From Candidatus Nitrospira inopinata (GTDB taxonomy: Bacteria > Nitrospirota > Nitrospiria > Nitrospirales > Nitrospiraceae), in NCBI RefSeq assembly GCF_001458695.1, contig NZ_LN885086.1:2850001-2882000 (forward strand): a stretch of DNA of 32,000 nucleotides. The letters are read 5' to 3'. Of the stretch, positions 1,560 through 29,859 are shown in pieces (positions within the stretch are counted from its first letter, which is position 1; the number at the start of each line of letters is the position of its first letter). The position numbers and the translations under genes are program-made. The notes under the pieces were generated by a model, which saw only the letters and a program-made list of their open reading frames with translations, ran no database searches and was not told the DNA's origin.

Positions 1560-2099
1560 CAGCCTCATGAACTCAAACAGGTGCGGACTTCTCTCGGATT
1601 GACCCAGGACACCCTTGCGCAGACCCTCAATGTGACGAGGCAGACCATCAATCGGTACGAACAGAAGATCGTGCCGATCCCCACGACCGTCGAACTGGCC
1701 CTAATGCAACTCAGCTCCTCGCAGATTCAGCTGGCTGGGGTTGTCGCGGCAGGGGCGCCCATTGAACCGATTCCTCAGATGGAACGCGTCGAGGTTCCGA
1801 AAAGCATGGTCGGTCGTGGAGAGACCTTCGCCCTTCGGGTGAAGGGCATGTCCATGCAGGACGAAGGAATCTTCTCCGGTGATGTGGTCGTAGTTCAGAA
1901 GCAAGCCACTGCCCGCAATGGGCAGACCGTGATCGCCTTGGTGAATGGCGAGGCCACGATCAAGACCTATCACCGCAAGGGCAGCACGGTCGAACTCCTC
2001 CCTGCCAATGACGCTATGCAGCCGATCATCATCAAGCCGTCGGACAGCTTCCAGATCGAAGGCATTGTCGTCGGCGTCATCCGTCATCTCCGAAAGTGA
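1557..2099 (+). CDS. XRE-family HTH + S24 peptidase repressor (phage CI / LexA-like, self-cleaving type)
   Basis: The N-terminus LGLTQDTLAQTLNVTRQTINRYEQ is a Cro/C1-type HTH. The C-terminus has the S24 hallmarks: a VAAG|AP cleavage-site-like motif, GMSM (catalytic Ser) and ATIKTY (Lys). Confidence 0.85.
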   Translation: MQPHELKQVRTSLGLTQDTLAQTLNVTRQTINRYEQKIVPIPTTVELALMQLSSSQIQLAGVVAAGAPIEPIPQMERVEVPKSMVGRGETFALRVKGMSMQDEGIFSGDVVVVQKQATARNGQTVIALVNGEATIKTYHRKGSTVELLPANDAMQPIIIKPSDSFQIEGIVVGVIRHLRK

Positions 2100-2118
2100 G
2101 GCCTCGGCTGTTGGCACC

Positions 2119-3303
2119 ATGGACCGCCAAATTGTCTGCTTTGGGATTCCTGCCTTCGAAGTCGCTGTCGCGCGGTTGCATGATCCCAGCCTCTCGACGC
2201 GACCAGTCGCCATCGCTCCATTAAATACCCCTCGGGCATGTCTGCGTGAGGTCTCAGCTGAAGCCGAACAAGAAGGTCTTGGGATCGGAATGTCCGTCGA
2301 GCAAGCACGACGGATCTGTTCTTCCCTGCACGTCCTTTCCCCGAATCCTGCTGGAATCCGTACGGCGGATGAGTCGTTGCTTCACATCGTGAGCCGCTAT
2401 GCTCCGGTCTGGGAACCAGTTCAGCCAGGGTCCTTCGTGATGGATGTGACCGGAACTGGTCGACTCTTCGGACCTGCGTATGACATCGCGACAAAGGTCC
2501 AACATGAAGTCCTTGCTCAATATCGCCTCGACGGGGTCGCCGGTGTGGGGAGCAACAAGCTCGTGGCTCAGACTGCGGCGACGTTGATTCAGCCGTCAGA
2601 ACTGTATGATGTCCGCCCAGGGTCGGAGCCGGTGTTCATGGCACCACTGTCGGTGGGCACCCTGCCGGGCTTGCAGCGGCCTTGCATGCGGCAAGTGCTA
2701 ACGCGGCTCGATGATCTGAACCTCGATACGCTCGGTGACGTGGCGGAGAGTCCCGTTGACGCGTTGGAAGTGGCGCTGGGGGACTATGCCGGACAACTCT
2801 CCCGCTGGGCGCTGGGGATTGATTCATTGCCGGTGTTGCCACCGTCGAGTCAGCCCCGGCTCGAAGAGACGGTCCTTCTCGATCCAGATGAAATCGATGA
2901 TCCCGTGCTGACCGGTCGATTGCTCGACGCGCTACAACGGCTCTGTCGAATGCTGCGGAGTCAGCGTCGCGTCTGTGGCCGTCTGTCCCTCACGATCCGC
3001 TATAGCGATCACATTGAGGTGACCAAACACAAGCACCTCACACCTGAGACCTGTTGGGAATATGACCTGTCTTCCGTGGTGCTATTACTCTTTCAGAAAT
3101 GCATGCGTCGGCGGATTCGCTTGAGAACCATGACTTTGAGCGTGACAGGCCTAGCTGAGTATACCGAGCAAGGTGCCCTCTTCGATACCCGATCCCTCGA
3201 CGACCAGCGTCGGCAGGAGCGGGCCAAGAAGCTCGCCGTCGCGCTCGATCAGCTCCATACCCGTTTTGGCGAACAGTCCATTCGCTATGGGAGGAGTGGG
3301 TAA
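2119..3303 (+). CDS. imuB: Y-family DNA polymerase-like protein lacking catalytic acidic residues (ImuB-like)
   Basis: The ORF-track frame is 1945..3303. The plausible start is ATG 2119 (MDRQIVCFGIPAFEVAVA), 19 nt after the repressor stop. It shows Y-family (DinB/ImuB) fold motifs. GIP replaces the DMD of the DinB N-terminal motif, and GSFVMDVTG replaces SIDEAYLDVTG. The gene lies directly upstream of dnaE2. Confidence 0.8.
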   Translation: MDRQIVCFGIPAFEVAVARLHDPSLSTRPVAIAPLNTPRACLREVSAEAEQEGLGIGMSVEQARRICSSLHVLSPNPAGIRTADESLLHIVSRYAPVWEPVQPGSFVMDVTGTGRLFGPAYDIATKVQHEVLAQYRLDGVAGVGSNKLVAQTAATLIQPSELYDVRPGSEPVFMAPLSVGTLPGLQRPCMRQVLTRLDDLNLDTLGDVAESPVDALEVALGDYAGQLSRWALGIDSLPVLPPSSQPRLEETVLLDPDEIDDPVLTGRLLDALQRLCRMLRSQRRVCGRLSLTIRYSDHIEVTKHKHLTPETCWEYDLSSVVLLLFQKCMRRRIRLRTMTLSVTGLAEYTEQGALFDTRSLDDQRRQERAKKLAVALDQLHTRFGEQSIRYGRSG

Positions 3304-6300
3304 GTGGCCTTCGTCCACCTGCACACGCATTCGTCCTTTTCGCCGATGTGGGGCGTGCCCACGCTGGATGCCCTCTGTCAGGCAGCTCAATCACAAGGAC
3401 AAGACTATCTCGCGCTCACCGATACCAACGGACTCTATGGCGCGATCCGCTATCTCGAAGTCGCGCACGAGCATGGACTCAAGCCGATCTTGGGCGCGGA
3501 ACTCGTCTCCGATCAGCACCGGGCCGTGTTGCTCGCGAAGAACTTCACGGGGTACGGCAATCTTTGCCGGATTCTGTCCGCGCGTCACTGTGATGCGTCC
3601 TTTGAGTTCATCGAGACCGTGGCGCGGCATCGCACGGGACTGGTGTTGCTGTCTGATGATCCTGTCGCGGTGACTGCGTGGCAGGCGGAGTCGGCAACGG
3701 ATCTCTACATCGAGCTCACACCGGGTCTCACCTTACAAGACACGGTCGCAGTGAGCCGCCGACTTAGACTGCCGCCGGTAGCCACCACCCGCGCCGCGTT
3801 CCTTCACTCGGCCGACTATCAGGCCCATCGGCTCTTACGGGCCATCGCCGAAAATACGACGCTCTCACGACTCAAGCCCGACCACTGTGCGCTCCCCTCT
3901 CACTCGCTGATGCCGGAACCCGTGCTCACGCGACATCTGCCTCACGTGCCGGAAGCCATCGCCAACACGCGGCAGATTGCCGAACAGTGCCACACCGAGT
4001 GGGACTTCAAACAGACTATCTTTCCCTCCTTCCGTCGGCTCTCCTCAGGCGCCGCCTTTGAAACACTACACCGCAAGACCTACGAAGGCGCCATCTGGCG
4101 CTATGGTGCCTTGTCTCCCGTAGTCCGAGAGCGCATCGAAAAGGAACTCATGGTGATCCGTGACAAGGGCTATGCCGACTACTTTCTCGTGGTGGATGAG
4201 ATCGTGCGGCAAGCCCCACGGACCTGTGGTCGAGGGTCCGCTGCGGCGTCAATTGTCTCCTATTGTCTCGGCATCACACATGTGGACCCGATTCGGCACA
4301 ATCTCCTCTTTGAGCGGTTTCTCAATCCCGGTCGGCATGATCCGCCCGACATCGACGTAGACTTTCCCTGGGATGAGCGGCCTGCCATTCTCGAATGGGT
4401 CTTTCAGCAGTATGGGCATCAGCACGCCGCGATGGTCGCCAATCAGAACCAGCTGGCCACACGTGCGGCCTTGCGCGAGATTGCGAAGGTCTATGGCCTG
4501 CCGGCCGGTGAGATCGGCAAGGCGTTGAACTTTCTCCAGCGACGAGCGGACTTCGTCGATGTGCAACCGGGGATGACGGTGAAAGACTGGGCGCGGGATG
4601 TCTGCAGGGCCTTGAACCTCAGAAGCCCCTGGCCGGAGATTCTTTACTGGTCAACGCAATTGGACGGCCACTTCCGAAATCTGGGGCTCCATCCTGGTGG
4701 CGTCGTACTGGTCTCCGATGAGATCCGACGCTATGTTCCGGTTGAGATCTCCGCGTCAAACCTGCCGGTGATCCAATGGGAGAAAGATCAAACCGAAGAC
4801 GCGGGACTCGTCAAGATCGATCTCTTAGGCAATCGCTCGCTCGCCGTCATCCGTGACGCCATCGTGGCCATCACTCGCAACACGGGACATGTCATCGACT
4901 ATGCGACCTGGGACCCACTCACTGATCCAGCCACCAATGACTTGATTCGTCGGGGTGAGACGATGGGCTGCTTCTATGTGGAATCTCCCGCAACCAGGCT
5001 GTTACTCAAGAAGCTCTGGGGTGGAATGCCACCAGAGCGACGTGCCGTGGCCGATGTCTTTGAGTATCTCGTGGTGGTGTCGTCGATCATCCGCCCCGCG
5101 GCGAATGTGTTCGCCGATGAATTTGTGCGTCGGGCCCATGGGCAGCAGTATCAGTCACTTCATCCCTTGCTTGATGAAGTACTCGCGGAGACCCACGGCA
5201 TCATGGTGTATCAGGAAGATGTGATGAACGTGGCGGCCGCCTTGGGTGGACTCTCGGTTGAAGATGGTGATCAGCTTCGGAAGGTGTTGAGCAAGAAGCA
5301 CAAGGAACGGCAACTGCGAGACTATCAACGCCAGTTCTATCAGGGAGCGATGGCCCGTGGTGTGAACTGTCGCGTGATCGACTCGATCTGGGCCATGGTC
5401 ATGAGCTTCGCGGGCTATAGTTTCTGTAAGCCGCATAGTGCGAGCTATGCGCAAGTGAGCTTCAAGGCCGCCTATCTCAGAGCGCATTATCCGGCGGAAT
5501 TCGTTGCCGCCGTCGTGAGCAATCAAGGCGGCTATTACTCGGCCTTTGCGTATTTGTCAGAGGGACGACGGATGGGCCTCACCATCCTGCCGCCGGACAT
5601 CAATGCGAGTGTGTGGACCTACACCGGATCAGAAACCACCGTTCGCATGGGACTGATGCAGATCAAAGGCCTTCAAGAAAATCTCGCCAAGCAGCTCATT
5701 GCCGAACGAGAACAGCACGGTCCCTACCGATCGCTGTCAGATTTTCTGAGTCGCGTGAAACTGGACTACACCCAAGCCAAATTGTTGATCAAAGCCGGAT
5801 GCTTTGATTCGATTGCCGGTGAACTCACCAGACCAGCCCTGCTCTGGCGTGTCTTCGCTGCGCAGGCGACCAAGCCACCGAGTTCCATCCCAATCCCAAC
5901 GGAGTATTCAGCCCAGAAGACACTACAGCACGAACTCGCCCTCTTCGGCTTCCCCTTATGCTGTCATCCGCTCGACCTGTTCAAGGAGGCGCTGGCTGCG
6001 ACCCCACACACGCTCGCGAGAGACTTGGATCAGTATGTGGGACAAGAAGTCACCCTCATTGGGTGGCTCCTGACGGAGAAGATCGTCTCCACGAAGAAAG
6101 GCGAGCCGATGGAGTTCATGACGCTGGAGGATCAGACCGGGATGTATGACGCCACCGTGTTTCCCACCACCTACAGGCATTACTGTCATCTGCTCGCGAC
6201 GAACCAAGCCTATGTGGTGACCGGTTTGGTGGAAGAGCATTTTGCGACCGTCACGGTCACCATGAAAACACTACAACTCCTGACCACCGGTGGAATCCCG

Positions 6301-6336
6301 GCATCGAGTGAGCCGCTTGAGGAGCTAAGCGTGTAA
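3304..6336 (+). CDS. dnaE2: Error-prone DNA polymerase III alpha-like subunit DnaE2 (ImuC)
   Basis: 1010 aa with a GTG start abutting the imuB stop (TAAGTG). It has the PHP domain motif FVHLHTHSSFS, a Pol III alpha core (e.g. KPHSASYA) and an OB-fold-type C-terminus. Size and imuB linkage are typical of DnaE2. Confidence 0.9.
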   Translation: MAFVHLHTHSSFSPMWGVPTLDALCQAAQSQGQDYLALTDTNGLYGAIRYLEVAHEHGLKPILGAELVSDQHRAVLLAKNFTGYGNLCRILSARHCDASFEFIETVARHRTGLVLLSDDPVAVTAWQAESATDLYIELTPGLTLQDTVAVSRRLRLPPVATTRAAFLHSADYQAHRLLRAIAENTTLSRLKPDHCALPSHSLMPEPVLTRHLPHVPEAIANTRQIAEQCHTEWDFKQTIFPSFRRLSSGAAFETLHRKTYEGAIWRYGALSPVVRERIEKELMVIRDKGYADYFLVVDEIVRQAPRTCGRGSAAASIVSYCLGITHVDPIRHNLLFERFLNPGRHDPPDIDVDFPWDERPAILEWVFQQYGHQHAAMVANQNQLATRAALREIAKVYGLPAGEIGKALNFLQRRADFVDVQPGMTVKDWARDVCRALNLRSPWPEILYWSTQLDGHFRNLGLHPGGVVLVSDEIRRYVPVEISASNLPVIQWEKDQTEDAGLVKIDLLGNRSLAVIRDAIVAITRNTGHVIDYATWDPLTDPATNDLIRRGETMGCFYVESPATRLLLKKLWGGMPPERRAVADVFEYLVVVSSIIRPAANVFADEFVRRAHGQQYQSLHPLLDEVLAETHGIMVYQEDVMNVAAALGGLSVEDGDQLRKVLSKKHKERQLRDYQRQFYQGAMARGVNCRVIDSIWAMVMSFAGYSFCKPHSASYAQVSFKAAYLRAHYPAEFVAAVVSNQGGYYSAFAYLSEGRRMGLTILPPDINASVWTYTGSETTVRMGLMQIKGLQENLAKQLIAEREQHGPYRSLSDFLSRVKLDYTQAKLLIKAGCFDSIAGELTRPALLWRVFAAQATKPPSSIPIPTEYSAQKTLQHELALFGFPLCCHPLDLFKEALAATPHTLARDLDQYVGQEVTLIGWLLTEKIVSTKKGEPMEFMTLEDQTGMYDATVFPTTYRHYCHLLATNQAYVVTGLVEEHFATVTVTMKTLQLLTTGGIPASSEPLEELSV

Positions 6337-7750: not shown

Positions 7751-9913
7751 CTAGTAATCGACGCCCATCACATAGGTTCTTGCCGCACCTCGTGCAGCGC
7801 TGACTTTAATCGGCCGCATCATGTCATTGTCCTCATGGTCGAGGATATGACAGTGCCATACGAATCCATGCGTACCGGCATCTGGATCAAAGGCATAGTT
7901 TCCGGCCAGGCCGGCTGCCGTGTCTGTCGGCGCGAAGCGTACGGCGATACGAGTGACGTGGCCCGGATACACGATCACCGTATCTTTCCATCCGGCTTCG
8001 TTGGCTTCCGGAGGATGTACGGGGCCATGCAGGTATGGCTGAATATTCGGATTCCCTCCGTATTTCAATCCAGAAGCGACGGAAGGCGCATACGTCAACG
8101 GTGGACCATCGCCAAACATAGAGGTGCCGCCGGGGAACGACCCCTCGTAGGCCTTATTGTACCGGTTCAGATGGATCTTCTGCCGATTGATCAACTGAAC
8201 CTGCGTCAAGTGCGTGTGGATCGGATGGGCATCGGCTGTCAGGTTGACGATTTCCCAGACCTCGGTCTCGCCTTCAGCCGGCAACTCGGACACATATTCC
8301 GTTATGCCTCCCACCGTGACGGCCGTAAAATCCGTTCGGATCGTTCCATCGGCACGTTTGCCGGACATCTTCGTATTGTTCAGCAGCAATTCAACCATTT
8401 CCATTCCGCCAGCACCCATCATGTTGTTCAGGGTGAGTTGGCGCGTTTTCGAAGGAACGACGGCCAGCGTCCCCGTGGCCGGGTTCACCAACCGACGCAT
8501 GGGTGGGCGGAGCGCGCCGCCATGAGCCGGGTTGTAGCTCGCGTCGGCCCCTGCCAACGTGGACGGTCCCACTCGGAACTGAAGAATGCGTCCCACCGTC
8601 GCCCCGTCGGGTGGAGCCCCATCGGGGAATGGTGCGCGGCCGTGATTCTTCAAAATCAGCGTTCGGCCCTCTAATCCTGAAAAGTCGATAATGATGTCGG
8701 CGCGCTCACCAGGCATCACGGTCAGCTTGTGTAGCCGAACCGGCGCATCGAGATACCCTCCGTCGGTTGCGATCTGCCATAGATGCTGTCCGTGCAAGGA
8801 GAGTTCATACGTACGCGCGTTTGATCCGTTGATGAGGAGGAACCGATAGCGCCTGGCCTCGACATTCAGATAGGGCCAGACCTTGCCGTTCACCACAATC
8901 GTGTCGCCGAAGAACTCCATCATCCAGAACGGGTGCTCCGGGTTGGGCCCCATGTTGGGGAAATAGAGCTGCCCGGTCGTATCGAACGTGCGGTCCTGAA
9001 TCACCAGCGGAATAATATAGTCTACGGAGCCTGCGGTGCCTTGCTGCAACCCGATCGGATGCAGACCGGCCGGTAACGTCAGCGTTGGATCAACGATTAG
9101 ATAGCCCCCTGCCAACCCCGCATAGACGTTCAAGCGTGTCACGCCCAACGCATGGTCATGAAACCAGAGAGGAGCCGCCTCCTGCTTGTTCGGATAGCGG
9201 TACATCGCTCCATTCGCCACCGCACCGGCTTTGCTGTAGTACGAATGGCCTCGGTAGGCTCCATCACTGGTGAACCAGGCGTTCGGATTTCCATCCAGCA
9301 CCGGCGGCACCTCCCCTCCATGCAAATGGGGAACGGTTGGGACTGGGCCGGCATAATTCGACGCGCAGACCCCCACCGGCGGTTGGTTTTCAGTGACCGC
9401 ATCCGCACACCTGTTCGCTTCACCGTTCAGCGGATCGGCCCAGTCAAGAGTCTGATCGGTCGAGGTCTTCCACGCCGATAGTTGGCTCGCCGCCGTATTG
9501 GGCAGACTGTTGATGTACTGAATTTCGGTCGGAGTTCCACGCGTCGCGACGAACACCGGCCCAATGTAGGTTGGGAACGGCGTCCCCGATCCAGGACACG
9601 TTGAACCGTTGCGGTAGCCCCAGACGTACGTTCCCGAGTAGGCGGGAGCGGAAGACGCCGGTACGAATGTCGAAGGCATGACGTTGGCCTTGAACTCACA
9701 CATCGAGAGTGTTGCTGATGCCGTGGTGATGGTCTCGATGGTACCGCCCGCCACAGCGAGAAGAGGCAACGGGTCCACGAACTGCGGAATCTCACTGCCC
9801 GGTAACGGTGCTGGCTGAGCTGTGGCCGGAGTGTAGGAGACCAGCGTCAGTGCCACCAAGAGGTAGTGAGCCGGAGACCAACTCCTTATGATTTTTTCTC
9901 GAAGGCATCTCAT
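7751..9913 (-). CDS. Multicopper oxidase (three-domain, CotA/CueO/bilirubin-oxidase-like), secreted
   Basis: All four Cu-ligand motifs are present: HLHGG, WFHDHA, HPIHTHL and HCHILDHEDNDMM. I prefer ATG 9913 (MRCLREKIIRSWSPAHYLLVALTLVSYTPATAQ, signal-peptide-like), preceded by GGAGGTG. The track ORF extends to 9949. Confidence 0.9.
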   Translation of the reverse strand: MRCLREKIIRSWSPAHYLLVALTLVSYTPATAQPAPLPGSEIPQFVDPLPLLAVAGGTIETITTASATLSMCEFKANVMPSTFVPASSAPAYSGTYVWGYRNGSTCPGSGTPFPTYIGPVFVATRGTPTEIQYINSLPNTAASQLSAWKTSTDQTLDWADPLNGEANRCADAVTENQPPVGVCASNYAGPVPTVPHLHGGEVPPVLDGNPNAWFTSDGAYRGHSYYSKAGAVANGAMYRYPNKQEAAPLWFHDHALGVTRLNVYAGLAGGYLIVDPTLTLPAGLHPIGLQQGTAGSVDYIIPLVIQDRTFDTTGQLYFPNMGPNPEHPFWMMEFFGDTIVVNGKVWPYLNVEARRYRFLLINGSNARTYELSLHGQHLWQIATDGGYLDAPVRLHKLTVMPGERADIIIDFSGLEGRTLILKNHGRAPFPDGAPPDGATVGRILQFRVGPSTLAGADASYNPAHGGALRPPMRRLVNPATGTLAVVPSKTRQLTLNNMMGAGGMEMVELLLNNTKMSGKRADGTIRTDFTAVTVGGITEYVSELPAEGETEVWEIVNLTADAHPIHTHLTQVQLINRQKIHLNRYNKAYEGSFPGGTSMFGDGPPLTYAPSVASGLKYGGNPNIQPYLHGPVHPPEANEAGWKDTVIVYPGHVTRIAVRFAPTDTAAGLAGNYAFDPDAGTHGFVWHCHILDHEDNDMMRPIKVSAARGAARTYVMGVDY

Positions 9914-9972: not shown

Positions 9973-10194
9973 TCAGGTTTTCTCGTGATCCGGACCTCCC
10001 CGTATTAACAACACAGCCCCAACGATGACGTAGGCGACGACCGGAATAGCCCACAGGATCTTCGTGGTGTCAAACTCCGTGCTGCCAGACGCCGTGGTGT
10101 GAAACCCTAGGAGTAGCCATATCGGCTCATGAATAAAGAGAAAGAACACCAGCATTGCTAAACCCAGCCAATTGGTCCAACGCATGCCCATCAT
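9973..10194 (-). CDS. Small 2-TM membrane protein, unknown family (paralog of 22299..22490)
   Basis: 73 aa: MMGMRWTNWLGLAMLVFFLFIHEPIWLLL...ILWAIPVVAYVIVGAVLLIRGGPDHEKT. AAAGGAG lies upstream of ATGATGGGCATGCGTTGG. The short start is supported by the paralog, which begins with the same nucleotides. The track ORF extends to 10329. Confidence 0.7.
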   Translation of the reverse strand: MMGMRWTNWLGLAMLVFFLFIHEPIWLLLGFHTTASGSTEFDTTKILWAIPVVAYVIVGAVLLIRGGPDHEKT

Positions 10195-10366
10195 GAGATG
10201 TTCTCCTTTCATGTGATAATCAGCCCCTCTTCGAGTGCGTGGACACCGGATGGAGTAGCGTCGGGGCCGATTGTGTAATGAAACCTCCAGACCAAACCGA
10301 ACGGATGAATCCATGCCGCCTCCGAGCACAAAAACGGAGTGGCAGGGAATTGACTGGAGGTAGGAA

Positions 10367-10744
10367 TTAAATTCTAAGGACCGATGACGAGGCTATGGAG
10401 ATGGGGACAAACTCCGAGGCAGAGCTCCAGGATGAGGATTCTAACGTTGAGGAAACAGTGGATGCTGTGACAGGGCTAAGCAGTGCTGCTTTCGGATTCA
10501 CATCGGTGGTCGCCTCATGCTTGAGCTGCCGTTCCGGCGATGATACGGCGGACGGTGGGCACATGAGCATCCCGTCCATGGGACAGGCCATATGGTTTAT
10601 CTCGTCAGCCAATTGTGTTGCCTCGCCGGCCAACGACAGATCAGGCACCGTACACATTGTCCCGATGATTTGACAAAGGGCGAAGAGCAGGACCACGCTG
10701 AAGGACTGCATCTTATCTTTGACGATGATCCAACGGTTTATCAC
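10367..10744 (-). CDS. Cys/Met-rich small protein, unknown family (paralog of 29860..30264), heads the oxidase operon
   Basis: Shares CQ(I/V)IG(T/S)MC..PDLS, MACPMDGxxMCPPSxxxSPERQxK, SWSSA and the C-terminal VPISIxSSSVLRI with the second copy. The start is ambiguous: GTG 10744 gives a basic N-region (MINRWIIVKDK), and the alternative is ATG 10711. Confidence 0.7.
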   Translation of the reverse strand: MINRWIIVKDKMQSFSVVLLFALCQIIGTMCTVPDLSLAGEATQLADEINHMACPMDGMLMCPPSAVSSPERQLKHEATTDVNPKAALLSPVTASTVSSTLESSSWSSASEFVPISIASSSVLRI

Positions 10745-10801
10745 TTAAGAACTCTCTGTGGATCCATGGCCCTACCCTTGGGTCCAAAACTTACGGCCGA
10801 T

Positions 10802-11122
10802 TTACGACACAAGAAGGTTGAAGCGAAGTGAACGGTATTCTTTATCCGCGCTGGATTTAAGATCAGCCGGTAGCGTCAACAATCGGTGTACTTCCTTACG
10901 CGTCAATCCGCTGAGGGTCGTAATTCTCGATACCGACTGCTTCTTGCCTGCGATCCTGAACTCGGTGTTCGCGACCTCCACATAGACCCGCTTGACGAGT
11001 TCAGCGCACGTTGGATGGGAAACACTGTTTCGCAAGAAGATCCTCACCAACGGTCGCCGCAGGTGACCAATAGCAGCGGAAAGTGCTTGGACTGAGCCAT
11101 GAACCTTCACAATTGTTGCCAT
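10802..11122 (-). CDS. Hypothetical protein with possible HTH (SVSRITTLSGLTRKEVHRLL)
   Basis: 106-aa ORF, co-directional with its neighbours, filling the gap between the ATPase and the Cys/Met-rich gene. No family recognised. Confidence 0.4.
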   Translation of the reverse strand: MATIVKVHGSVQALSAAIGHLRRPLVRIFLRNSVSHPTCAELVKRVYVEVANTEFRIAGKKQSVSRITTLSGLTRKEVHRLLTLPADLKSSADKEYRSLRFNLLVS

Positions 11123-11242
11123 GGTGAACTCACGTACATATAAGACCGGCCTGATCCGTCTGCGCGACGACCAATGGGACCGTCCCGACTGTCATCCGAT
11201 TGGCTTAATTCTCGCTTCTTCTGAACCGCCTCTTCTCTGCGT

Positions 11243-13948
11243 TCACCTCCCCCCTCGAGAACGCGCCGCTTTCCAGATCTCCATCGCCACCAGCGGCAAG
11301 ATCCCGATGCCGAGAACAAGAAGCCAATGTTCGGTGTCAAAGGGCACGACGTCGAAAATCGAATGGATCGGCGGAGTAAGTACAATGACGGCTTGCAGCG
11401 CCGCCGAAAGGGCAACGGCCCCGAGCAGCGGTCTATTTGTCAGGAATCCAATCTCGAAAATGGACCGGCGGTCGCTTCGATTATTGAAAGCATGGAAGAG
11501 TTGAGCCGTGACGAGGATCGTGAAAGTCAGCGTGCGGGCCCGCTCGAGGTTCAAGTCCATGCCGTACAAACAGTACACAAACGCCCCGAGCGTAATCAGT
11601 GCCAAAAAGGAGCCCTGGGCGAACAACATGAGAAACCGGTCTTTCGTCAGGAATTGTTCCGCTGGTGGTCGGGGTGGCCGTCTCATCAAGTCGGGATCCT
11701 TGGGATCAACGGCGAGTGCCAACGCAGGGAGGCCGTCTGTCACCAGATTGATCCAAAGAATTTGCACCGGCAACAACGGCAGCGGAAGGGCAAACAGCGT
11801 GGCGAGCAACATGAGGAGAATCTCGCTGATGTTGCAGGAGAGCAGATAGAACACCGCTTTTCGGATATTATCGAAGACGGCTCGTCCCTCTTCTACCGCT
11901 GCGGCAATCGACGCGAAGTTATCGTCGGTGATGACCATGTCAGAGGCTTCTTTCGTGACGTCTGTCCCGGTGATGCCCATGGCCACACCGATATCGGCCG
12001 CTTTCAGCGCCGGCGCGTCGTTGACCCCGTCGCCGGTCATGGCGACCACCGCCCCTCGCCGCTTCCAAGCCTTCACGACCCGGAGCTTGTGCTCAGCCGA
12101 CACCCGAGCGTAGACCGCAGTGCCGGCAACTCGTTTCTCCAGCTCGTCATCCGACAGCTGGTCCAGCTCTGTACCGGAGATCGCTTGCGCACCCGTTTCC
12201 AAAATCCCTAAGTCGTGCGCAATGGCAATCGCCGTGTCCTTATGGTCGCCTGTAATCATGACCGTCCGAATGCCCGCAGTCCGACAGGTCTCCACGGCCG
12301 CCTTGGCTTCCGGTCGGATCGGATCTTTCATGCCGACCAACCCTAAAAAAGTTAAGTCGTGCTCCAAGCTGGTGGCTGTATACGCGTCCGGCAGGATGTC
12401 CAACGGCCGCATAGCCACGCCGAGGATCCGCAGGGCTTGCGAGGCAAATTGCTGATTGATGGAGAGGATTTGTTGACGGATCTCCTCCGTCAGCGCTGTG
12501 ATCTGCCCGTCACGGGTCATCCAGGCGGTGCAATCGCGCAGCAGCACATCCGGTGCGCCTTTGACGTAGGCGACAGGACCGGAGGCGGCGCTCCGGACCA
12601 TGGACATCTTTTTACGTTCGGAATCGAACGGCACCTCACCAAGCATCGGATTATCACGATCCAGATCGGCTTTCGAGAGTCCGGTCTTCGCCGCCACGAC
12701 GAGTAGGGCACCCTCTGTCGGGTCGCCCAGCACCTGCCAGGCGAAGGCTTCCAGACGCAATTCGGCTCCGTTACACAACACGCCAGCCTGCAGGAGGGCC
12801 GTGAGCCCCGGATACGGACTTCCGTTGGTCGGTCCTTCGTTCACACGGATCTCACCAACCGGCGCATACCCTTCGCCCGAGACAGTCAAGACCTCACCGC
12901 CGAGGTACAGGCGAGTCACGGTCATCTCGTTCTTGGTGAGTGTGCCCGTCTTGTCCGAGCAGATCACGGTTGTTGACCCCAATGTTTCCACTGCCGGCAG
13001 CCGTCGGATCAAAGCATGGCGTTGCACCATGCGGGTGACGCCCAGCGCCAGTGTGATGGTGACTACTGCGGGCAAGCCCTCTGGAATGGCCGCAACGGCT
13101 AAACTCACCGATGTAAGAAACATCATGATCAGTGGCACGCCGCGGAGCATGCCCAGGAGGAACACGGCTCCTACAATCACCAGCGAGAGCCACAGCAAGG
13201 TGTGTCCGAGCTGTTCGAGTCGGCGCTGGAGCGGCGTCTCTTCTTGCTCCGCCTGCGCCTCGCGATGGATCATCGCCGCGATCTTTCCCAGCTCGGTCAG
13301 GGGTCCGGTGGCCGTCACCAACGCCCGGCCTTTTCCAGAAACGGCGATGGTGCTCATAAAGAGCATGTTGCGACGGTCCCCCAAGGGCACCTCGGTCTGA
13401 GAAATTAGCTCGGCGGACTTGCTGACCGGCGTGGATTCTCCGGTCAGAGAGGCTTCTTGTGTCTGGAGGCTCGTCGCATAGATCAACCGGCTGTCGGCTG
13501 GGATCCGATCTCCGGCTTCCACTTGGATGAGATCGCCGGGAACCAGTTCGCGGGCCGGGATCGACCGCGCGACTCCCTCGCGGATCACCCGCGCAGTCGC
13601 GACCGACAGTTTGCGGAGTGCTGCCAAGGAGCGTTCGGCGCGGAACTCCTGGACGAATCCTAGGATGGCATTGAGGACCACAATCGCAACAATCGCGGCC
13701 GCGTCGATCCATTCTTGCAGCAAGCCAGATACGAGCGCCGCGCCGATGAGGACCCAGACGATCAGACTCGAGAATTGCGCCAGGAGGATTTTGAGAGGGG
13801 AAGGTGGAGGGGCTTCAGGCAATTCATTCGGCCCCACGGTCGAGAGGCGATGCTCCGCCTCACGTTCAGTCAATCCATCATTGATGTCGGAGTCTAGTTC
13901 ACGTTCCAGCGATTCGAACGTGAGCGTGTGCCAGCCGTTGGATTTCAT
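11243..13948 (-). CDS. P2-type (Ca2+/cation, SERCA/PMCA-like) P-type ATPase
   Basis: 901 aa with TGES, IPEGLPAVVTITLALG (TM4 PEGL motif), DKTGTLT, TGDHKDTA and TGDGVNDAPALK. There is no CPx motif, so it is not a P1B heavy-metal pump. Confidence 0.9.
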   Translation of the reverse strand: MKSNGWHTLTFESLERELDSDINDGLTEREAEHRLSTVGPNELPEAPPPSPLKILLAQFSSLIVWVLIGAALVSGLLQEWIDAAAIVAIVVLNAILGFVQEFRAERSLAALRKLSVATARVIREGVARSIPARELVPGDLIQVEAGDRIPADSRLIYATSLQTQEASLTGESTPVSKSAELISQTEVPLGDRRNMLFMSTIAVSGKGRALVTATGPLTELGKIAAMIHREAQAEQEETPLQRRLEQLGHTLLWLSLVIVGAVFLLGMLRGVPLIMMFLTSVSLAVAAIPEGLPAVVTITLALGVTRMVQRHALIRRLPAVETLGSTTVICSDKTGTLTKNEMTVTRLYLGGEVLTVSGEGYAPVGEIRVNEGPTNGSPYPGLTALLQAGVLCNGAELRLEAFAWQVLGDPTEGALLVVAAKTGLSKADLDRDNPMLGEVPFDSERKKMSMVRSAASGPVAYVKGAPDVLLRDCTAWMTRDGQITALTEEIRQQILSINQQFASQALRILGVAMRPLDILPDAYTATSLEHDLTFLGLVGMKDPIRPEAKAAVETCRTAGIRTVMITGDHKDTAIAIAHDLGILETGAQAISGTELDQLSDDELEKRVAGTAVYARVSAEHKLRVVKAWKRRGAVVAMTGDGVNDAPALKAADIGVAMGITGTDVTKEASDMVITDDNFASIAAAVEEGRAVFDNIRKAVFYLLSCNISEILLMLLATLFALPLPLLPVQILWINLVTDGLPALALAVDPKDPDLMRRPPRPPAEQFLTKDRFLMLFAQGSFLALITLGAFVYCLYGMDLNLERARTLTFTILVTAQLFHAFNNRSDRRSIFEIGFLTNRPLLGAVALSAALQAVIVLTPPIHSIFDVVPFDTEHWLLVLGIGILPLVAMEIWKAARSRGGR

Positions 13949-14259
13949 GTTGCCTCATGAGAGATAGGCTGGCTCCACTCGTTCTGTCGAATCCATAGGA
14001 CGATCTCCTTGTTCAGAGTAGCTGTGACATATTCCGGCACGGCGCCTTCAATGGAGGCATCCAGCCCGGTCGTATACCTCTGGCCGCAGTATTTCATGAT
14101 GAGGGCCGCGACCACCGCCACTCCATATTTTCCACCCGGCTTCACCTCAAGAAGATGGAGGTAGGCCAAGCCGAAAGGATTGCCGAGCCCCATGACCCTC
14201 AGAAACCGACTGCCCAATACCCTCATGGAGAATGAAAGGGCTGTGAGTGTCAGCGGCAT
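13945..14259 (-). CDS. Hypothetical protein (104 aa), translationally coupled on both sides
   Basis: ATG 14259 shares one nucleotide with the TGA of the upstream YHS gene (TGATG). Its own TGA overlaps the ATPase ATG (ATGA at 13948-13945). No family recognised. Confidence 0.55.
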   Translation of the reverse strand: MPLTLTALSFSMRVLGSRFLRVMGLGNPFGLAYLHLLEVKPGGKYGVAVVAALIMKYCGQRYTTGLDASIEGAVPEYVTATLNKEIVLWIRQNEWSQPISHEAT

Positions 14260-14435
14260 CACAGTTTTGGACCTTCAAAGTCTTTCATGTACGATTCCGG
14301 ATCGTGATCGAAGTGCTCCTTGCATGGCTTCGAGCAAAAATAATATGTCTTCCCCTTGAAGAGGCTTTGGAATGGGGCGCTCTCCTTGTCGATCCACATC
14401 CCGCAAACTCGATCCAACTCTTCGGTTGACTTCAT
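14259..14435 (-). CDS. YHS/TRASH-domain metal-binding protein (58 aa; below the ORF-track cutoff)
   Basis: My translation: MKSTEELDRVCGMWIDKESAPFQSLFKGKTYYFCSKPCKEHFDHDPESYMKDFEGPKL. It fits the YHS pattern CGM...G..YYFCS..C...F...P..Y. A strong SD, GGAGGAAGGAGG, precedes ATG 14435. Confidence 0.8.
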   Translation of the reverse strand: MKSTEELDRVCGMWIDKESAPFQSLFKGKTYYFCSKPCKEHFDHDPESYMKDFEGPKL

Positions 14436-17852: not shown

Positions 17853-19685
17853 TTACACATAGGCATTAGCGGCATACTGCTGGACCATGCGGTGGGTGTT
17901 GAAGAATGACGCGTTGAATGCGATCGTATGCCGCATCACGTCGATCCAACGATCCCGCGATTGGTAGTACATCGGCAGGATCGTCCAACGCAGCTTCTGA
18001 TACAGCTCGCGCGCATCCTCCTGCTGATCGGTCCCTTGGCTCATCACCCGTGAGCCGATCGACCAACCGGTGACGCCTTCAATGTGGCCCTCCAGCCACC
18101 ATCCGTCCAGGACGCTAAGACTCGGCACGCCGTTGTGCGCCGCCTTCATGCCGGACGTCCCCGACGCTTCGAGCGGCCGCTGGGGCGTGTTGAGCCACAG
18201 ATCCACGCCGGCAGTCAGGAGCCGAGCGAGGGTCATGTCGTAGTTGTCGAGATAGTGAATCGTCACATCCGGATCGAGCTGCTTGGCCGCTTGCACGATC
18301 CGCCGGATCATGTCCTTGCCGGGCTCATCCTTGGGGTGCGCCTTGCCGGCGAATATGATCTGCAGCGGTCCTGCCTTCTTGGCTACGTCGATCAATTCAC
18401 GAGGCGCCGACACAATCAAATCGGCCCGCTTATATACGGTCGCACGGCGGGCAAACCCGATCGTGAAGGCATCCAGGCTCAACTGCTGCTGCGTGCGCTG
18501 TCTCACCTCTTCGAGCAGCCGCGCCTTGGCCTTGCTATGCGCGTCCCAGATCCCCTGATTTGGGATACTGATCGTGTAGCGCAGAGAGAACGGATCGGTT
18601 CGCCAACCTGGAATCGACCGATCGTAAAGATCCTGGAAGCTCTCGCAGGTCCAGGTGACTGAATGGACGCCGTTCGTGATCGAATCGATGACATGCGCGG
18701 GAAACATCTGTTGCGAGACTTCGCCATGCCGCTTCGCTACGCCATTGACATAGGTGCTCATGTTGAAGCCCAGGAGCGTCATGTTGAGGCGGTCCTCCCC
18801 ACCTAGCATCTGTAAGACTTCCAACGGTAGTAGGTCCCCCATGACCCGACCCACAAGGTCATACGCGAATTGATCGTGCCCGGCCGGAACCGGCGTATGG
18901 GTGGTAAAGACGCAGCGACGTCTCACCGCAGGGAAGTCCCACTCTGTGGAACCGGCCGGAGTCGACTCGCGCAGGAGCTGGAGCGTCAAGAAAGCGGCAT
19001 GCCCTTCATTCATATGGAATCGTTCTACCGCGGAATACCCAAGAGCCTGGAGCATTCGGATGCCGCCGATGCCCAGGATGATTTCTTGCGCGAGCCGGTA
19101 GCGGTCATCCCCTCCGTAGAGCCACAAGCTCAGCTCTCGGTCTTGCTGGGCATTGTCCGGGCGATTGGCATCCAACAAGAGCACTGGCACCCGGCCGCCT
19201 GTGACACCGACGAGATCGTATTGCCAAGCCTGGACGATCACGGTCCGTGCTTCGATAGTCACTGCCACTGTGGCTGGGAGGAGGTGAAGTCGGCCTCTCG
19301 GCTCCCAAGACACTGGCTGCTCGTGCTGGTTGCCCCACTCGTCCAGCTTCTGCTCAAAATATCCGTTCCAGTACAGGAGGCTAACTCCGACGGCTGGAAT
19401 TTTGAGATCGGCAAACGATCGCAGCGTATCTCCCGCCAGGACTCCCAACCCTCCGCTGTAGGTGGGCATGGCAGGATCAAGCGCCACTTCCATCGTAAAG
19501 TACGCCACACGTCGGGTGGAGGAGCCGTCCGTCCCTGCTGGCTCGAGCGGGCTCAGGTATCTCTCCGGATCGGTGAGGAAAGAGCGCCGGCACAGCTCAG
19601 AACAGAAGTAGAGCGTCCGGTCTCCATAGGTTGTAGACGACGCCTGTTCTCGGAAGACGGTCATGCCACAGACCGGATCTTTCAT
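17853..19685 (-). CDS. YHS-domain :: alpha-glucan phosphorylase (GT35, GlgP-family) fusion protein
   Basis: From ATG 19685: MKDPVCGMTVFREQASSTTYGDRTLYFCSELCRRSFLTDPERYL (YHS). The same frame continues into VAYFTMEVAL...YSGGLGVLAGDTLRSFADL...EASGTSGMKAAHNGV (PLP Lys motif). The start overlaps the upstream gene's stop (ATGA). The track ORF extends to 19847. Confidence 0.85.
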   Translation of the reverse strand: MKDPVCGMTVFREQASSTTYGDRTLYFCSELCRRSFLTDPERYLSPLEPAGTDGSSTRRVAYFTMEVALDPAMPTYSGGLGVLAGDTLRSFADLKIPAVGVSLLYWNGYFEQKLDEWGNQHEQPVSWEPRGRLHLLPATVAVTIEARTVIVQAWQYDLVGVTGGRVPVLLLDANRPDNAQQDRELSLWLYGGDDRYRLAQEIILGIGGIRMLQALGYSAVERFHMNEGHAAFLTLQLLRESTPAGSTEWDFPAVRRRCVFTTHTPVPAGHDQFAYDLVGRVMGDLLPLEVLQMLGGEDRLNMTLLGFNMSTYVNGVAKRHGEVSQQMFPAHVIDSITNGVHSVTWTCESFQDLYDRSIPGWRTDPFSLRYTISIPNQGIWDAHSKAKARLLEEVRQRTQQQLSLDAFTIGFARRATVYKRADLIVSAPRELIDVAKKAGPLQIIFAGKAHPKDEPGKDMIRRIVQAAKQLDPDVTIHYLDNYDMTLARLLTAGVDLWLNTPQRPLEASGTSGMKAAHNGVPSLSVLDGWWLEGHIEGVTGWSIGSRVMSQGTDQQEDARELYQKLRWTILPMYYQSRDRWIDVMRHTIAFNASFFNTHRMVQQYAANAYV

Positions 19686-20134
19686 ACGATATTCCCCATC
19701 TTGCGGTGCCACCACGCCAGCAGAGCAAAAATCAGCGGCGGCAGCACCAGCATCTGCGCCAGCGGAGCCAACCCGATGTTCAACCCCGGCACGAGAGGCA
19801 TACGCGGGCTGTAGGCCCACCAATGTGCGCCATAGATCGTGATCCACTCGACAGTGACGCTGATGACCGCTCCCGACAGCAGCAGTACGGCATAGCCTCG
19901 CGCTCCCGGCCGGAGATACCAGTCACGCTGTCCGATCACCAGCCAGCCGATCCGAAAGAGCAGGAGAACCACCAGGCCGTCCGCAACACTTGCCGCCGTA
20001 CACATCCACCACTCAACCTCTGCCTCGCCAGGCATGACATACAGACTGGACTGGGCCCGTTCCCAAGGATGGTTGACCACCACGGCAAGACCGAAAAGAA
20101 CGGTGAGCCGTTGATGGAGCAAGTGGCTCCACAT
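19682..20134 (-). CDS. Hypothetical ~4-TM membrane protein
   Basis: 150 aa from ATG 20134, preceded by GGAGG with a 7-nt spacer. It is Trp-rich and hydrophobic. The stop is coupled to the YHS::phosphorylase start. Confidence 0.6.
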   Translation of the reverse strand: MWSHLLHQRLTVLFGLAVVVNHPWERAQSSLYVMPGEAEVEWWMCTAASVADGLVVLLLFRIGWLVIGQRDWYLRPGARGYAVLLLSGAVISVTVEWITIYGAHWWAYSPRMPLVPGLNIGLAPLAQMLVLPPLIFALLAWWHRKMGNIV

Positions 20135-21413: not shown

Positions 21414-21752
21414 TCAAGGAATGGCCGACTCTTGTTCGCGATGCAGCTTGGCGAGAGCCTCCGCTTCTTCGGCGGCTTTCGTGTAAGCGTGCATAAAGTC
21501 GCGGCAATGCCTGAGCAGCTCTCCTTTGGACTCTTTTGGAGAGAGCGGATAGGCGTGGAGCGCGTATCGATCACCCATCTGACGCATCTCCTCTGCCTTT
21601 CCTCGTAGGCGCACGGCCTCCTGCTCATACCAGGCCGCCAGTCCACTGTGATCGTTGCGTTCAATGAGTTCGCGTGGTGGGCCCGTCGAACAGGCCATGA
21701 CCGCCACGACGAACAACAGGACGAACCACGACAGCTGCCGCGAGATCTTCAT
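21414..21752 (-). CDS. Small exported protein, probable lipoprotein (paralog of 21890..22228), unknown family
   Basis: From ATG 21752 (SD GAAGGAAGGAAG): MKISRQLSWFVLLFVVAVMAC (lipobox-like), then NDHSGLAAWYEQEA...LLRHCRDFMHAY...EALAKLH. Confidence 0.65.
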   Translation of the reverse strand: MKISRQLSWFVLLFVVAVMACSTGPPRELIERNDHSGLAAWYEQEAVRLRGKAEEMRQMGDRYALHAYPLSPKESKGELLRHCRDFMHAYTKAAEEAEALAKLHREQESAIP

Positions 21753-21790
21753 AGACGCTTCCTTCCTTCGAATAGGGAGGACCCAGAGCA

Positions 21791-21840
21791 CCGCCGAGGC
21801 GTCTCTTCGCATACGTTTTGAATACAGATCGCCTCGGCAG
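21791..21840 (-). other. Intercistronic RNA stem-loop between the two paralogs
   Basis: On the minus-strand RNA, CUGCCGAGGCG, a 28-nt loop, then CGCCUCGGCGG. This is an 11-bp stem that includes one G-U pair. Confidence 0.4.
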
Positions 21841-21889: not shown

Positions 21890-22228
21890 CTACGGGCCCT
21901 TGCGCGTCAGACTCAAGTGTTCACTCGCCAAGGCTGCGGCCTCGTCGGCCATCTTTCTGTAGTTGCGAGCGATTTGACGGCAGTGCGCCGCCTCGTCGGC
22001 GATGTCGCTCGACTTATAGAGCTCTGGGTGATGCTCATAGGATTCCGCGGTATTGTCCCAGAACCGCACCTTCGCCTTGAAATCCTGCGCCTGATCGGCA
22101 TAGTACATCGCGAGTGCCTGATGATCCCCCTTGGCAATCCCAGGCTCAGGCCCTGTCGCGGCCAAGCTTGGCATGGCGAAGACCAACAAGAGGACGATGA
22201 ATGGAAGCCCCCTCATAACCTGTCGCAT
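21890..22228 (-). CDS. Small exported protein (paralog of 21414..21752), unknown family
   Basis: From ATG 22228 (SD GAAGGAGGG): MRQVMRGLPFIVLLLVFAMPSLAA signal peptide, then GDHQALAMYYADQA...AAHCRQIARNY...AALASEH. Confidence 0.65.
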   Translation of the reverse strand: MRQVMRGLPFIVLLLVFAMPSLAATGPEPGIAKGDHQALAMYYADQAQDFKAKVRFWDNTAESYEHHPELYKSSDIADEAAHCRQIARNYRKMADEAAALASEHLSLTRKGP

Positions 22229-22298
22229 CGTAATCCCTCCTTCTATTGTTGGCAGTGACCCATTCACTGCCTCTGTTGAGAACACACGTGAAAGACGA

Positions 22299-22490
22299 TT
22301 AGGTGCTCTTGAGATCTGGACCTCCCCGTATTGACAACGCAGCCGCAACAATGATGTAGGCTACGACCGGAATCGCCCACAGGATATTGGTGGTGTCAGC
22401 CGACAGAAACAACCATATCGGCTCATGAATGATGAGAAAGATCCCCAGCATCAGAAATCCGACCCAATTGGACCAACGCATGCCCATCAT
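22299..22490 (-). CDS. Small 2-TM membrane protein, unknown family (paralog of 9973..10194)
   Basis: 63 aa: MMGMRWSNWVGFLMLGIFLIIHEPIWLFLSADTTNILWAIPVVAYIIVAAALSIRGGPDLKST. It has the same AAAGGAG ... ATGATGGGCATGCGTTGG start context as copy 1. Confidence 0.7.
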   Translation of the reverse strand: MMGMRWSNWVGFLMLGIFLIIHEPIWLFLSADTTNILWAIPVVAYIIVAAALSIRGGPDLKST

Positions 22491-29775: not shown

Positions 29776-29859
29776 GGCACACCTCCGCGCAGTAAAAGAC
29801 ATCACCGCCCGCTCAGCGTCAGCAGCCAAGCAGGGGACGACGATACTGGAGGTGTGGGA

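Follow-up and report, generated by a model that had tools for sequence, protein, structure and literature searches.

What does a small protein do that stands in front of two mechanistically different copper-detoxification machines, one for efflux and one for Cu(I) oxidation? The question is raised by a stretch of 32,000 nucleotides (nt) from Candidatus Nitrospira inopinata (contig NZ_LN885086.1, positions 2,850,001 to 2,882,000; the whole stretch is called the window below), in which one copy of a Cys/Met-rich family (copy 1) precedes a multicopper oxidase and another (copy 2) precedes a resistance-nodulation-division (RND) pump. An earlier note on this DNA had argued from these contexts for a generic role, be it metal sensing, metal delivery or operon-level regulation, rather than for a pump-specific subunit. 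Overall, we tentatively favor a reading in which the family consists of Nitrospira-restricted metal-sensing leader peptides, i.e., upstream open reading frames (ORFs) that would be functional analogues of CutF, CruR, CopL and CzcI. We hold this cis-sensor model with less than even confidence overall, more readily for loci of the copy 2 type and less so for copy 1.

One family in front of pumps and oxidases

The two copies belong to the same family, as the earlier note had recognized. BLASTP aligned them with 42 identities in 94 positions (45%), a single gap of two residues and an E value of 3e-26, and both contain the core MACPMDG(M/T)(L/I)MCPPS around the Cys motif. The gap is the 2-residue indel that had been read from the linker (LADEINH in copy 1 vs LVE--GS in copy 2). 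The C-terminus is preserved in both copies as well, although not strictly identical, because VPISIASSSVLRI in copy 1 and VPISISSSSVLRI in copy 2 are one residue apart. The proportion of differing synonymous sites (pS) between the copies is 0.6-0.9 in each block, i.e., saturated, which excludes a recent segmental duplication, an outcome that the earlier note had named as fatal to its proposal. The two copies are thus old, selected paralogs.

To describe the gene context, the downstream protein was identified at each locus for 55 family genes. A gene for an outer-membrane factor (OEP), typically heading an OEP-membrane fusion protein (MFP)-RND series, follows the family gene in 32 of the 55 cases, and a CopA/PcoA-type copper-resistance oxidase (TIGR01480, >800 bits) follows directly in 7. 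In nine further cases the next gene encodes a 73-residue transmembrane (TM) protein, behind which lies either a 732-residue oxidase type (5/55) or a CopA-type oxidase (4/55). The remaining genes are the first member of a tandem family pair (3/55), lie at a contig end (2/55) or have no reference protein downstream (2/55). Since pumps, CopA-type oxidases and small-TM-plus-oxidase pairs are all headed by this peptide, the family is tied to copper and is not pump-specific, in line with the claim that it is no pump subunit.

The genes behind copy 1 and the RND pump behind copy 2 are those that the earlier note had named. The copy 2 operon (all minus strand) comprises an outer-membrane factor (28471..29775; Pfam OEP) directly after copy 2, a CusB-like MFP (27221..28474; Pfam HlyD_D23) and a CusA/CzcA-family RND pump (24047..27214; Pfam ACR_tran; TIGR00914, 1157 bits). 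Copy 1 is followed on the minus strand by a two-TM protein of 73 residues (9973..10194; MMGMRWTNW...HEPIWLLLGF...) and by a 720-residue, three-domain multicopper oxidase (7751..9913) with matches to Pfam Cu-oxidase, Cu-oxidase_2 and Cu-oxidase_3; its PhsA/CueO-like matches stay under the NCBIfam cut-offs. The true start of the oxidase is ATG 9913, behind the Shine-Dalgarno (SD) sequence GGAGGTG. The small TM gene has the SD sequence AAGGAG (10203..10208), and its true start can be fixed at ATG 10194 because one related locus, L004, has a stop codon just upstream. The 73-residue protein matched no Pfam or NCBIfam family. It recurs in metal islands, where its gene may follow an RND gene, precede a family gene or separate a family gene from either oxidase type (L002, L030, L038, L052 and nine oxidase-type family loci).

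Copy 1 (10367..10744, minus) encodes 125 residues from a GTG start to a TAA stop (10367..10369). The upstream GTG is taken as the real start because Met12 is swapped for T or V in some homologs; most homologs of the same type (type A) begin with MN.W... at the equivalent codon. Copy 2 (29860..30228, minus) encodes 122 residues from ATG 30228 to a TGA stop (29860..29862). An ORF finder stretches its start to TTG 30264, but a promoter-like TTGACC-18-CATACT (30235..30264, minus) falls inside this longer ORF, and ATG 30228 is therefore the most likely start. The copy 2 mRNA is possibly leaderless, with transcription starting on or beside ATG 30228. Many relatives carry CTTGAC and a dyad within the spacer, which gives the element the look of a MerR-type operator; this element is not found in copy 1.

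Range of the family and selection on its two ends

A homolog search over 5.8 billion proteins returned 253 homologs at E<=0.01, forming about 250 clusters at 90% identity, and those with a name were all unannotated proteins of Nitrospira or Nitrospirota. A profile search over 1.84 billion representatives gave 75 clusters at 50% identity, and a scan of one genome per species gave 57 loci, all in Nitrospira/Nitrospiraceae and including N. moscoviensis and N. defluvii. The family thus appears to be confined to Nitrospira/Nitrospiraceae, and the second outcome that the earlier note had allowed to count against it, absence of the ORFs from relatives, is excluded by the 253 homologs and 57 genome loci. 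Membership in a known family was rejected: 27 members gave zero Pfam matches at E<=10, PF11162 included, the Pfam annotation was empty for 120 of the 120 homologs listed, and zero family matches were found among PDB sequences at E<=10 and in NCBIfam at E<=0.1. The leader RNA had zero matches in Rfam.

Selection acts on both ends of the protein, as had been proposed from the comparison of the two copies. The ratio of nonsynonymous to synonymous substitution (dN/dS), pooled over 55 genes, was 0.10 in the Cys motif, 0.19 in the last 13 codons and 0.25 in the hydrophobic N-terminus, compared with 0.63 in the linker. The linker thus evolves almost neutrally between two ends kept by purifying selection. 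The same pattern as in the whole family was obtained within the oxidase-heading clade (Cys motif 0.11, tail 0.17), and homologs at 72-99% identity keep the synteny of copy 1.

Anatomy of the peptide

Family members are 114-125 residues long. The invariant or near-invariant positions are F21, C24, Q25, G28, M30, C31, D35, L36 and A39 in the N-terminal part, M52, C54, P55, M56, D57, G58, M61, C62, S65, S69, P70, E71 and R72 in the Cys/Met motif, and I117 and S119-S-S-V-L-R-I125 in the tail. Four Cys are invariant, C24 and C31 in the hydrophobic segment (C-x6-C) and C54 and C62 in the predicted mature part (C-x7-C). Residues 13-39 of copy 1 (10628..10708, minus) form a predicted signal-peptide or signal-anchor segment, with an invariant core and a cleavage-like site, S-x-A followed by DD, whose position -3 is S or A in 151 of 176 members and whose position -1 is A in 154 of 176. 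The hydrophobic core of copy 1 spans 19 residues, with a Kyte-Doolittle maximum of 2.17 at residues 15-33, and the n-region is net positive. The core itself is conserved together with its two Cys, which is unusual for a signal peptide. A lipoprotein or pilin signal was rejected by inspection, as F-A-L-C forms no lipobox.

The putative Cu(I) site comprises residues 52-75 (10520..10591, minus; M-A-C-P-M-D-G-x-x-M-C-P-P-S...S-P-E-R-Q-L-K), with C54, C62 and M52/56/61 as candidate ligands, and takes the form M.CPMDG..MC..S...SPER across the family. The linker that follows (residues 76-104; 10433..10519, minus) is hypervariable in sequence and fixed in length, with a predicted local distance difference test score (pLDDT) of about 40 in AlphaFold2; in the most distant members only the conserved blocks can be aligned, and about 45 residues from SPER to the tail cannot. 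In 137 of the 163 complete members the C-terminus lies 63 residues behind the last Cys, with a range of 59-66 over all. AlphaFold2 runs with alignments of 27 and 102 sequences gave pLDDT values of 50 and 54 and predicted TM-scores (pTM) of 0.19 and 0.23, respectively, with helices only at residues 2-27 and, shortly, at 40-48, and a folded domain was rejected on the basis of both runs.

The C-terminal block (residues 105-125; 10370..10432, minus), SWSSASEF-VPISIASSSVLRI in copy 1, ends exactly at the stop codon. The family tail is SSSVLRI-stop; VLRI is terminal in 154 of 163 members and is extended beyond this point in none. The last 15 residues of copy 1 (E-F-VPISIASSSVLRI) contain one Pro only. 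The Arg codon of the tail varies among CGA, CGG, CGC, AGA and AGG, and third positions change elsewhere in the tail; because the residues survive these synonymous and CGN/AGR switches, selection on the tail acts on the amino acids. The last codons favor the uncommon CTT (32/55 vs 9%) and CGA (42/55 vs 17%). Among the 55 genes, the stop codon is TGA in 37, TAA in 18 and TAG in none, compared with 20% TAG among the long ORFs at these loci, and the base after the stop is T in every gene.

The leader RNA of pump-heading copies

In pump-heading copies, an anti-SD sequence, CACCUCCAG, lies 4-14 nt past the family stop codon and is complementary to the GGAGGUG Shine-Dalgarno sequence of the next gene, ~75-85 nt away. 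The stop is followed by T(T/C)C-CACACCTCCAG, the SD sequence CTGGAGGTG comes at 64-80 nt and a GTG or ATG 5-7 nt further on, so that the next start codon is found 73-92 nt past the family stop. In an alignment of 39 leaders, conservation was 0.85 for the anti-SD and 0.91 for the SD, compared with 0.45-0.65 for the remaining intergenic region (0.62-0.64 for the anti-SD flanks). We specified the outer, ten-base-pair helix between anti-SD and SD by hand, as RNAalifold on all leaders gave 4 pairs only. It was paired in 83% of the alignment cells of the 39 leaders vs 36-50% with the partner slid by 1-3 columns; over both leader alignments, the slid controls reached 34-50% vs 82-83% for the true helix. 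In the 27 TGA-type leaders, 82% of the outer helix and 85% of an inner hairpin were paired, the latter with 5 compensatory pairs, and the covariation score of both together exceeded all 500 shuffles.

Ensemble folding gave a median probability of 0.98 for pairing of the SD with nucleotides just past the stop. The median accessibility of the SD was 0.006 and rose to 0.27 when the stop codon and the next 12 nt, a ribosome footprint, were masked; a control mask left it at 0.006. By comparison, the SDs of OEP genes of the same loci without a family gene are not sequestered (median accessibility 0.25 vs 0.000 behind a family gene, Mann-Whitney p 0.0013). A strict CCTCC past the stop was present in 19 of 36 leaders with a functional SD and start vs 4 of 19 without (Fisher p 0.04, kinship ignored), a distribution that fits selection on the helix only where a working SD is hidden.

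Copy 2 has this arrangement in full. Its anti-SD, CACACCTCC (29848..29856, minus), lies 4-12 nt past the stop and forms the minimum-free-energy (MFE) helix with 29778..29786, which is the SD of the OEP start region GGAGGTGTG (29773..29786, minus; ATG 29773..29775). The inner hairpin occupies 29808..29836 (minus). The leader has an MFE of -39.1 kcal/mol (z -2.86) and a pairing probability of 0.98, and the unpaired probability of the SD is 0.02 in the free leader and 0.72 with the stop codon and the next 12 nt masked. Transcription attenuation was rejected as an explanation: a terminator-like hairpin with a T-tract was found in 10 of 39 leaders vs 8% of shuffles, at varying positions.

Copy 1 and the movement of the cassette

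The leader of copy 1 (10195..10366, minus) derives from a TAA-type pump leader, and the small TM gene starts 173 nt past the stop with an SD of its own. An anti-SD-like octamer, ACCTCCAG (10354..10361, minus), stands 6-13 nt past the stop and pairs with a remnant of the OEP Shine-Dalgarno sequence, CTGGAGGT (10283..10290, minus), which is homologous to the start region CTGGAGGTGTCATCGTG of type-A pump leaders and has no start codon behind it. The ensemble probability of this remnant helix is 0.83 in the window and about 0 in seven related oxidase-type leaders. The SD of the small TM gene is partly paired with UUCCU just past the stop, with an accessibility of 0.23 that rises to 0.54 on masking.

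Two further hairpins are predicted in this leader (both minus). Hairpin 1 (GCCACTCCG...CGGAGGCGGC, 10315..10343) corresponds to the inner hairpin and also occurs in type-A pump leaders; its arms fall almost wholly in invariant columns of the leader alignment A3, with zero compensatory changes. Hairpin 2 (ATCGGCCCC...GGGGCTGAT, 10219..10271) is found only in oxidase-type leaders, as the RNAalifold consensus of 8 and with no covariation. In the window only, the 3' arm of hairpin 1 gives GGAGG, 4 nt and ATG 10314 (minus) in frame with the small TM gene, as part of a 113-residue ORF. A mini-ORF in the leader, or a longer N-terminus of the small TM protein, beginning at ATG 10314 or at the ATT/ATG past the SD remnant, was rejected, since relatives differ in start codons and reading frame and have 7-nt and 1-nt indels; ATG 10314 is probably not used. 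A Rho-utilization site was unsupported, the composition being only mildly C-rich (C 0.35, G 0.22).

Copy 1 is assigned to a lineage that was transplanted, with its peptide intact, in front of a small TM gene and an oxidase. Scars of recombination are plain at other loci. At L008, the small TM gene is preceded by the N-terminal remnant of an OEP gene, retained behind the family gene. At L021, L025 and L029 (about 10327..12400), a CopA/PcoA-type oxidase has acquired the leader SD and its GTG, and its reading frame opens with the first OEP-like codons (VKRLLVHIL); this in-frame fusion lengthens the N-terminus by ~45 residues ahead of the Tat-like signal of the oxidase. From these sequences, a cassette of peptide plus leader appears to have been recombined before three kinds of copper-detoxification gene.

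Tandem family pairs occur at L001 (9218..10378), L014 (5505..6526) and L023 (2970..4509); at L001 and L014, the first copy has a full pump-type leader and a truncated OEP start and is followed by an oxidase-type copy. Upstream of copy 1, between a P2-type ATPase gene (11243..13948) and the family gene, lies a DUF6502 fragment (10802..11122, minus), a 106-residue ORF that covers only the first 87 of 268 positions. The same scar sequence stands at L001, a sign that both share one rearrangement.

Comparison with known systems

CutF of Rhodobacter capsulatus, encoded in cutFOG, carries a Sec signal and four Cys and has a PPP motif for stalling at its C-terminus; the SD of cutO is masked by a stem-loop (PMC9973294; bioRxiv 10.1101/2025.02.05.636593). 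The Nitrospira family resembles CutF in its length of <150 residues, its Sec-type-looking N-terminus, its four Cys and its conserved motif at the extreme C-terminus. As with cutF, a multicopper oxidase or metal pump is encoded on the same strand just behind the gene. CutF-like genes have such an OEP, RND or oxidase gene mostly within <100 nt, and the family agrees with this across the 55 genes, the next start codon of pump-type leaders being 73-92 nt away. In copy 2 and most pump-type copies only, the downstream SD lies in a predicted stem-loop, which would be opened by a ribosome that stalls. In contrast to CutF, the 27 Nitrospira members examined have no PF11162 match at E<=10, the mature Cys motif is C-x7-C with Met instead of CxxxC/CXXC, and the tail has no PP or PPP and ends in SSSVLRI-stop instead. 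The last Cys is 63 residues from the C-terminus, compared with ~45 residues between the motifs of CutF, and the oxidase of copy 1 follows only after 173 nt and a small TM gene. CopL and CzcI have been grouped with CutF-like proteins, and a PP motif served as a filter in the published lists (PMC9973294); Nitrospirota are absent from the main text and four supplementary files of that survey (PMC9973294).

CruR of Bordetella pertussis (bp2923) has a CXXC motif, a RAPP arrest motif and a Rho-dependent read-out (PMC9426467). Like the Nitrospira genes, CruR and CopL (of Xanthomonas and Stenotrophomonas) are upstream ORFs that head copper-homeostasis operons; in both, Cys residues of the peptide, nascent or exported, perceive the copper, and a conserved C-terminus is required. 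The intergenic region of CruR (162 nt) is near the 173-nt leader of copy 1 in length. However, CruR represses a TonB-dependent importer, RAPP is not present in the Nitrospira family and there is no sequence homology.

In position, copy 2 has an analogue in CzcI of Cupriavidus metallidurans, described as a periplasmic quencher of CzcCBA pump activity (PMC10127602). The czcI gene of pMOL30 encodes a signal-peptide protein of ~115 residues and lies 75 nt upstream of the OEP gene; a small signal-peptide-like ORF right upstream of the OEP gene of a heavy-metal-efflux RND (HME-RND) operon is likewise found for copy 2 and 31 other loci, but not for copy 1. Both proteins combine a signal peptide, a Cys/His or Cys motif, a variable middle and a conserved C-terminal motif (PDRPQW in CzcI), and czcI2 is reported to be leaderless (PMC10127602), as copy 2 is predicted to be. 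CzcI differs in being His-rich and linked to Zn, Co and Cd, with invariant C26, HxGHHEH, DCGxCH and PDRPQW, and hhalign gave a probability of 4%, with only 13 signal-peptide columns aligned. Membership in the CzcI/DUF2946 group was therefore rejected (hhalign 4%, no PF11162 match), and only the analogy is kept.

The arrest peptides SecM, MifM and VemP share with the family an N-terminal export signal, a C-terminal segment (~17-25 residues for arrest) and a helix-sequestered downstream SD that the arrested ribosome opens. However, they regulate Sec or YidC components and sense translocation, whereas the genes downstream in Nitrospira encode OEP or multicopper oxidases, and the arrest motifs are unrelated. 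Chaperones of the CusF/CopC type are Met/Cys-rich and exported and are found in cus- or cop-like clusters as well, but they are folded beta-barrels with Pfam models, whereas the Nitrospira family has no PF11604 or other Pfam match and AlphaFold2 predicted no beta-barrel. The family probably represents a convergent, proline-free version of the CutF/CruR/CopL/CzcI logic outside that group.

A putative mechanism and its alternatives

The ribosome exit tunnel holds ~30-35 residues and the passage through SecYEG ~25-30. When a ribosome stands at the last codons or the stop codon, the corresponding parts of the nascent chain would fill the tunnel and span SecYEG, and the 63-residue spacer would place C54-C62 just outside SecYEG, in the periplasm. 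Cu(I) binding, or failed disulfide formation, would then weaken the force that pulls on the nascent chain and so lengthen a pause on VLRI-stop. The paused ribosome would cover the anti-SD, the SD would be freed and the downstream gene would be translated. In this scheme the anatomy, the selection pattern, the gene context and the RNA pairing are observed, and we infer export, metal binding, pausing and the sign of the regulation. Among the roles that the earlier note had left side by side, operon-level regulation or metal sensing fits best, as the anti-SD past the stop sequesters the next SD in pump-heading copies; metal delivery finds no counterpart in a predicted fold or a CusF-like domain. 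In its most specific form, the mechanism would involve an independently evolved, proline-free arrest peptide that pauses on ...SSSVLRI-UGA/UAA (never UAG, U next), senses periplasmic Cu(I) co-translationally by a four-Cys/Met site, one part of which lies in its signal peptide and the other in a loop kept at exactly 63 residues from the peptidyl-transferase center, and, with the anti-SD leader, acts as a portable translational switch before pumps and two unrelated oxidase types. We regard this specific form as rather doubtful.

Several observations weigh against the cis-sensor model. The proline-free C-terminal motif appears to match no known arrest motif, and CzcI, the positional analogue, has been reported as a periplasmic quencher of pump activity (PMC10127602). 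The shuffle control is uninformative for the outer helix, whose SD side is invariant. Covariation of the outer helix is weak because the SD side cannot vary: a two-sided change is seen in one lineage only (L037/L041/L043, CCGAT/ATCGG), and changes on the anti-SD side are mostly wobble-compatible C-to-U. The SD pairs at a probability of <0.5 in 11 of 39 leaders, including N. defluvii L050, and an anti-SD past the stop is equally expected from plain translational coupling. For copy 1, the anti-SD and the SD remnant have drifted in the seven closest relatives, and a conserved switch in oxidase-type leaders was rejected, because folds disagree across 8 loci and no compensatory pairs occur. The peptide of the oxidase clade nevertheless remains under the purifying selection described above. 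Therefore, the peptide of this clade must have a function independent of the helix, either another cis read-out or a trans role, and a trans-acting role is possible for copy 1.

Such a role is the core of the alternative in which the family would be a trans-acting exported protein, a small, largely disordered, periplasmic or membrane-anchored Cu(I)-binder that serves as chaperone, buffer, sensor or CzcI-like efflux quencher, while the anti-SD only couples its synthesis. The conservation of the Cys/Met motif and the N-terminus, the selection that persists in the oxidase-heading clade despite the decayed SD-masking helix and the precedent of C. metallidurans CzcI, which lies at the same position upstream of czcC and is described as a periplasmic CzcCBA quencher (PMC10127602), all agree with this alternative, and the C-terminus, hydrophobic and conserved, could serve as a strand for docking or as a tag recognized by proteases or PDZ domains. 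However, no fold is predicted even with 102 sequences, a hypervariable linker of fixed length and a motif at the absolute C-terminus are hard to explain in this way, and there is no homology to CusF, CzcI or DUF2946. A pump-specific partner is also unlikely because this peptide is found before two unrelated oxidase types as well as before a pump, and we consider the trans-acting protein unlikely, though by no means negligible. Plain translational coupling without sensing, in which the terminating ribosome opens the anti-SD:SD helix and metal control is purely transcriptional, seems improbable to us. It agrees with the anti-SD geometry, with the dyad-containing, promoter-like elements that precede most family genes and with an extracytoplasmic function (ECF) sigma factor with a Cys-rich tail behind the RND gene, but it leaves the C-terminal peptide, the 63-residue ruler, the signal-peptide Cys and the Cys/Met motif unexplained. 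The GTG start of copy 1, the adjoining DUF6502 gene fragment and the lack of the CTTGAC promoter-like element found upstream of most members might suggest that this copy has no function and is a relic, be it a segmental duplication or a spurious ORF. This explanation is effectively refuted and hardly credible, given that the motifs are kept while synonymous sites are saturated between the copies, that homologs at 72-99% identity occur in the same synteny and that motif dN/dS within the clade is 0.11-0.19.

Other genes of the window

Directly downstream of the RND gene lies an ECF-type sigma factor gene (23445..24032, minus), for which SigZ/ECF models stay under their cut-offs. Its C-terminal tail is Cys-rich (CEGCEQGFMNCECAHKGN) and recalls CorE-type copper-sensing sigma factors; this factor may supply a transcriptional layer of control. 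Between the two copper clusters, beside a GH57 gene, are a YHS/TRASH-like metal-binding ORF of 58 residues (CGMW...YYFCSKPC; 14259..14435, minus) and an ORF that joins a YHS domain to a glycogen-phosphorylase-like protein (17853..19847, minus). At the edge of the metal island, 1945..6336 (plus) carries an ImuB-like gene (IMS family) followed by a gene for a DnaE2-like error-prone polymerase, i.e., a mutagenesis cassette. A transposase-like helix-turn-helix fragment occupies 22673..23152 (minus). Two small ORFs (21414..21812 and 21890..22351, both minus) have signal-like N-termini and similar C-terminal halves (...YY/WYEQ.A...A.E.....Y......H.......HC....Y.K.A.EA.ALA..H) and may be paralogs.

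Implications

Metal-sensing upstream ORFs of the CutF and CruR kind entered the literature as late as 2022-2025. Their definition rests on DUF2946 homology and proline-rich stalling motifs, and most known cases come from Pseudomonadota and Bacteroidota. The sharp features of the Nitrospira family, namely the 63-residue ruler, VLRI-stop and the CACCUCCAG anti-SD, make the cis-sensor hypothesis directly testable with simple reporters. If the hypothesis is true, studies of the ribosome and of release factors would gain a new candidate arrest sequence. The family is of interest for the fields of arrest peptides and of nitrifier copper physiology, an interest that is tempered by the degenerate switch at copy 1. 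In soils, drinking-water filters and wastewater plants, settings in which both the dosing and the limitation of copper are of consequence, Nitrospira belong to the key nitrifiers. Genes of this family, annotated as hypothetical only, stand before the majority of the cus-like pumps and many copper oxidases of these bacteria. If these peptides do sense metal, a non-homologous family with the same architecture and another terminal motif would mean that this control logic has evolved more than once.

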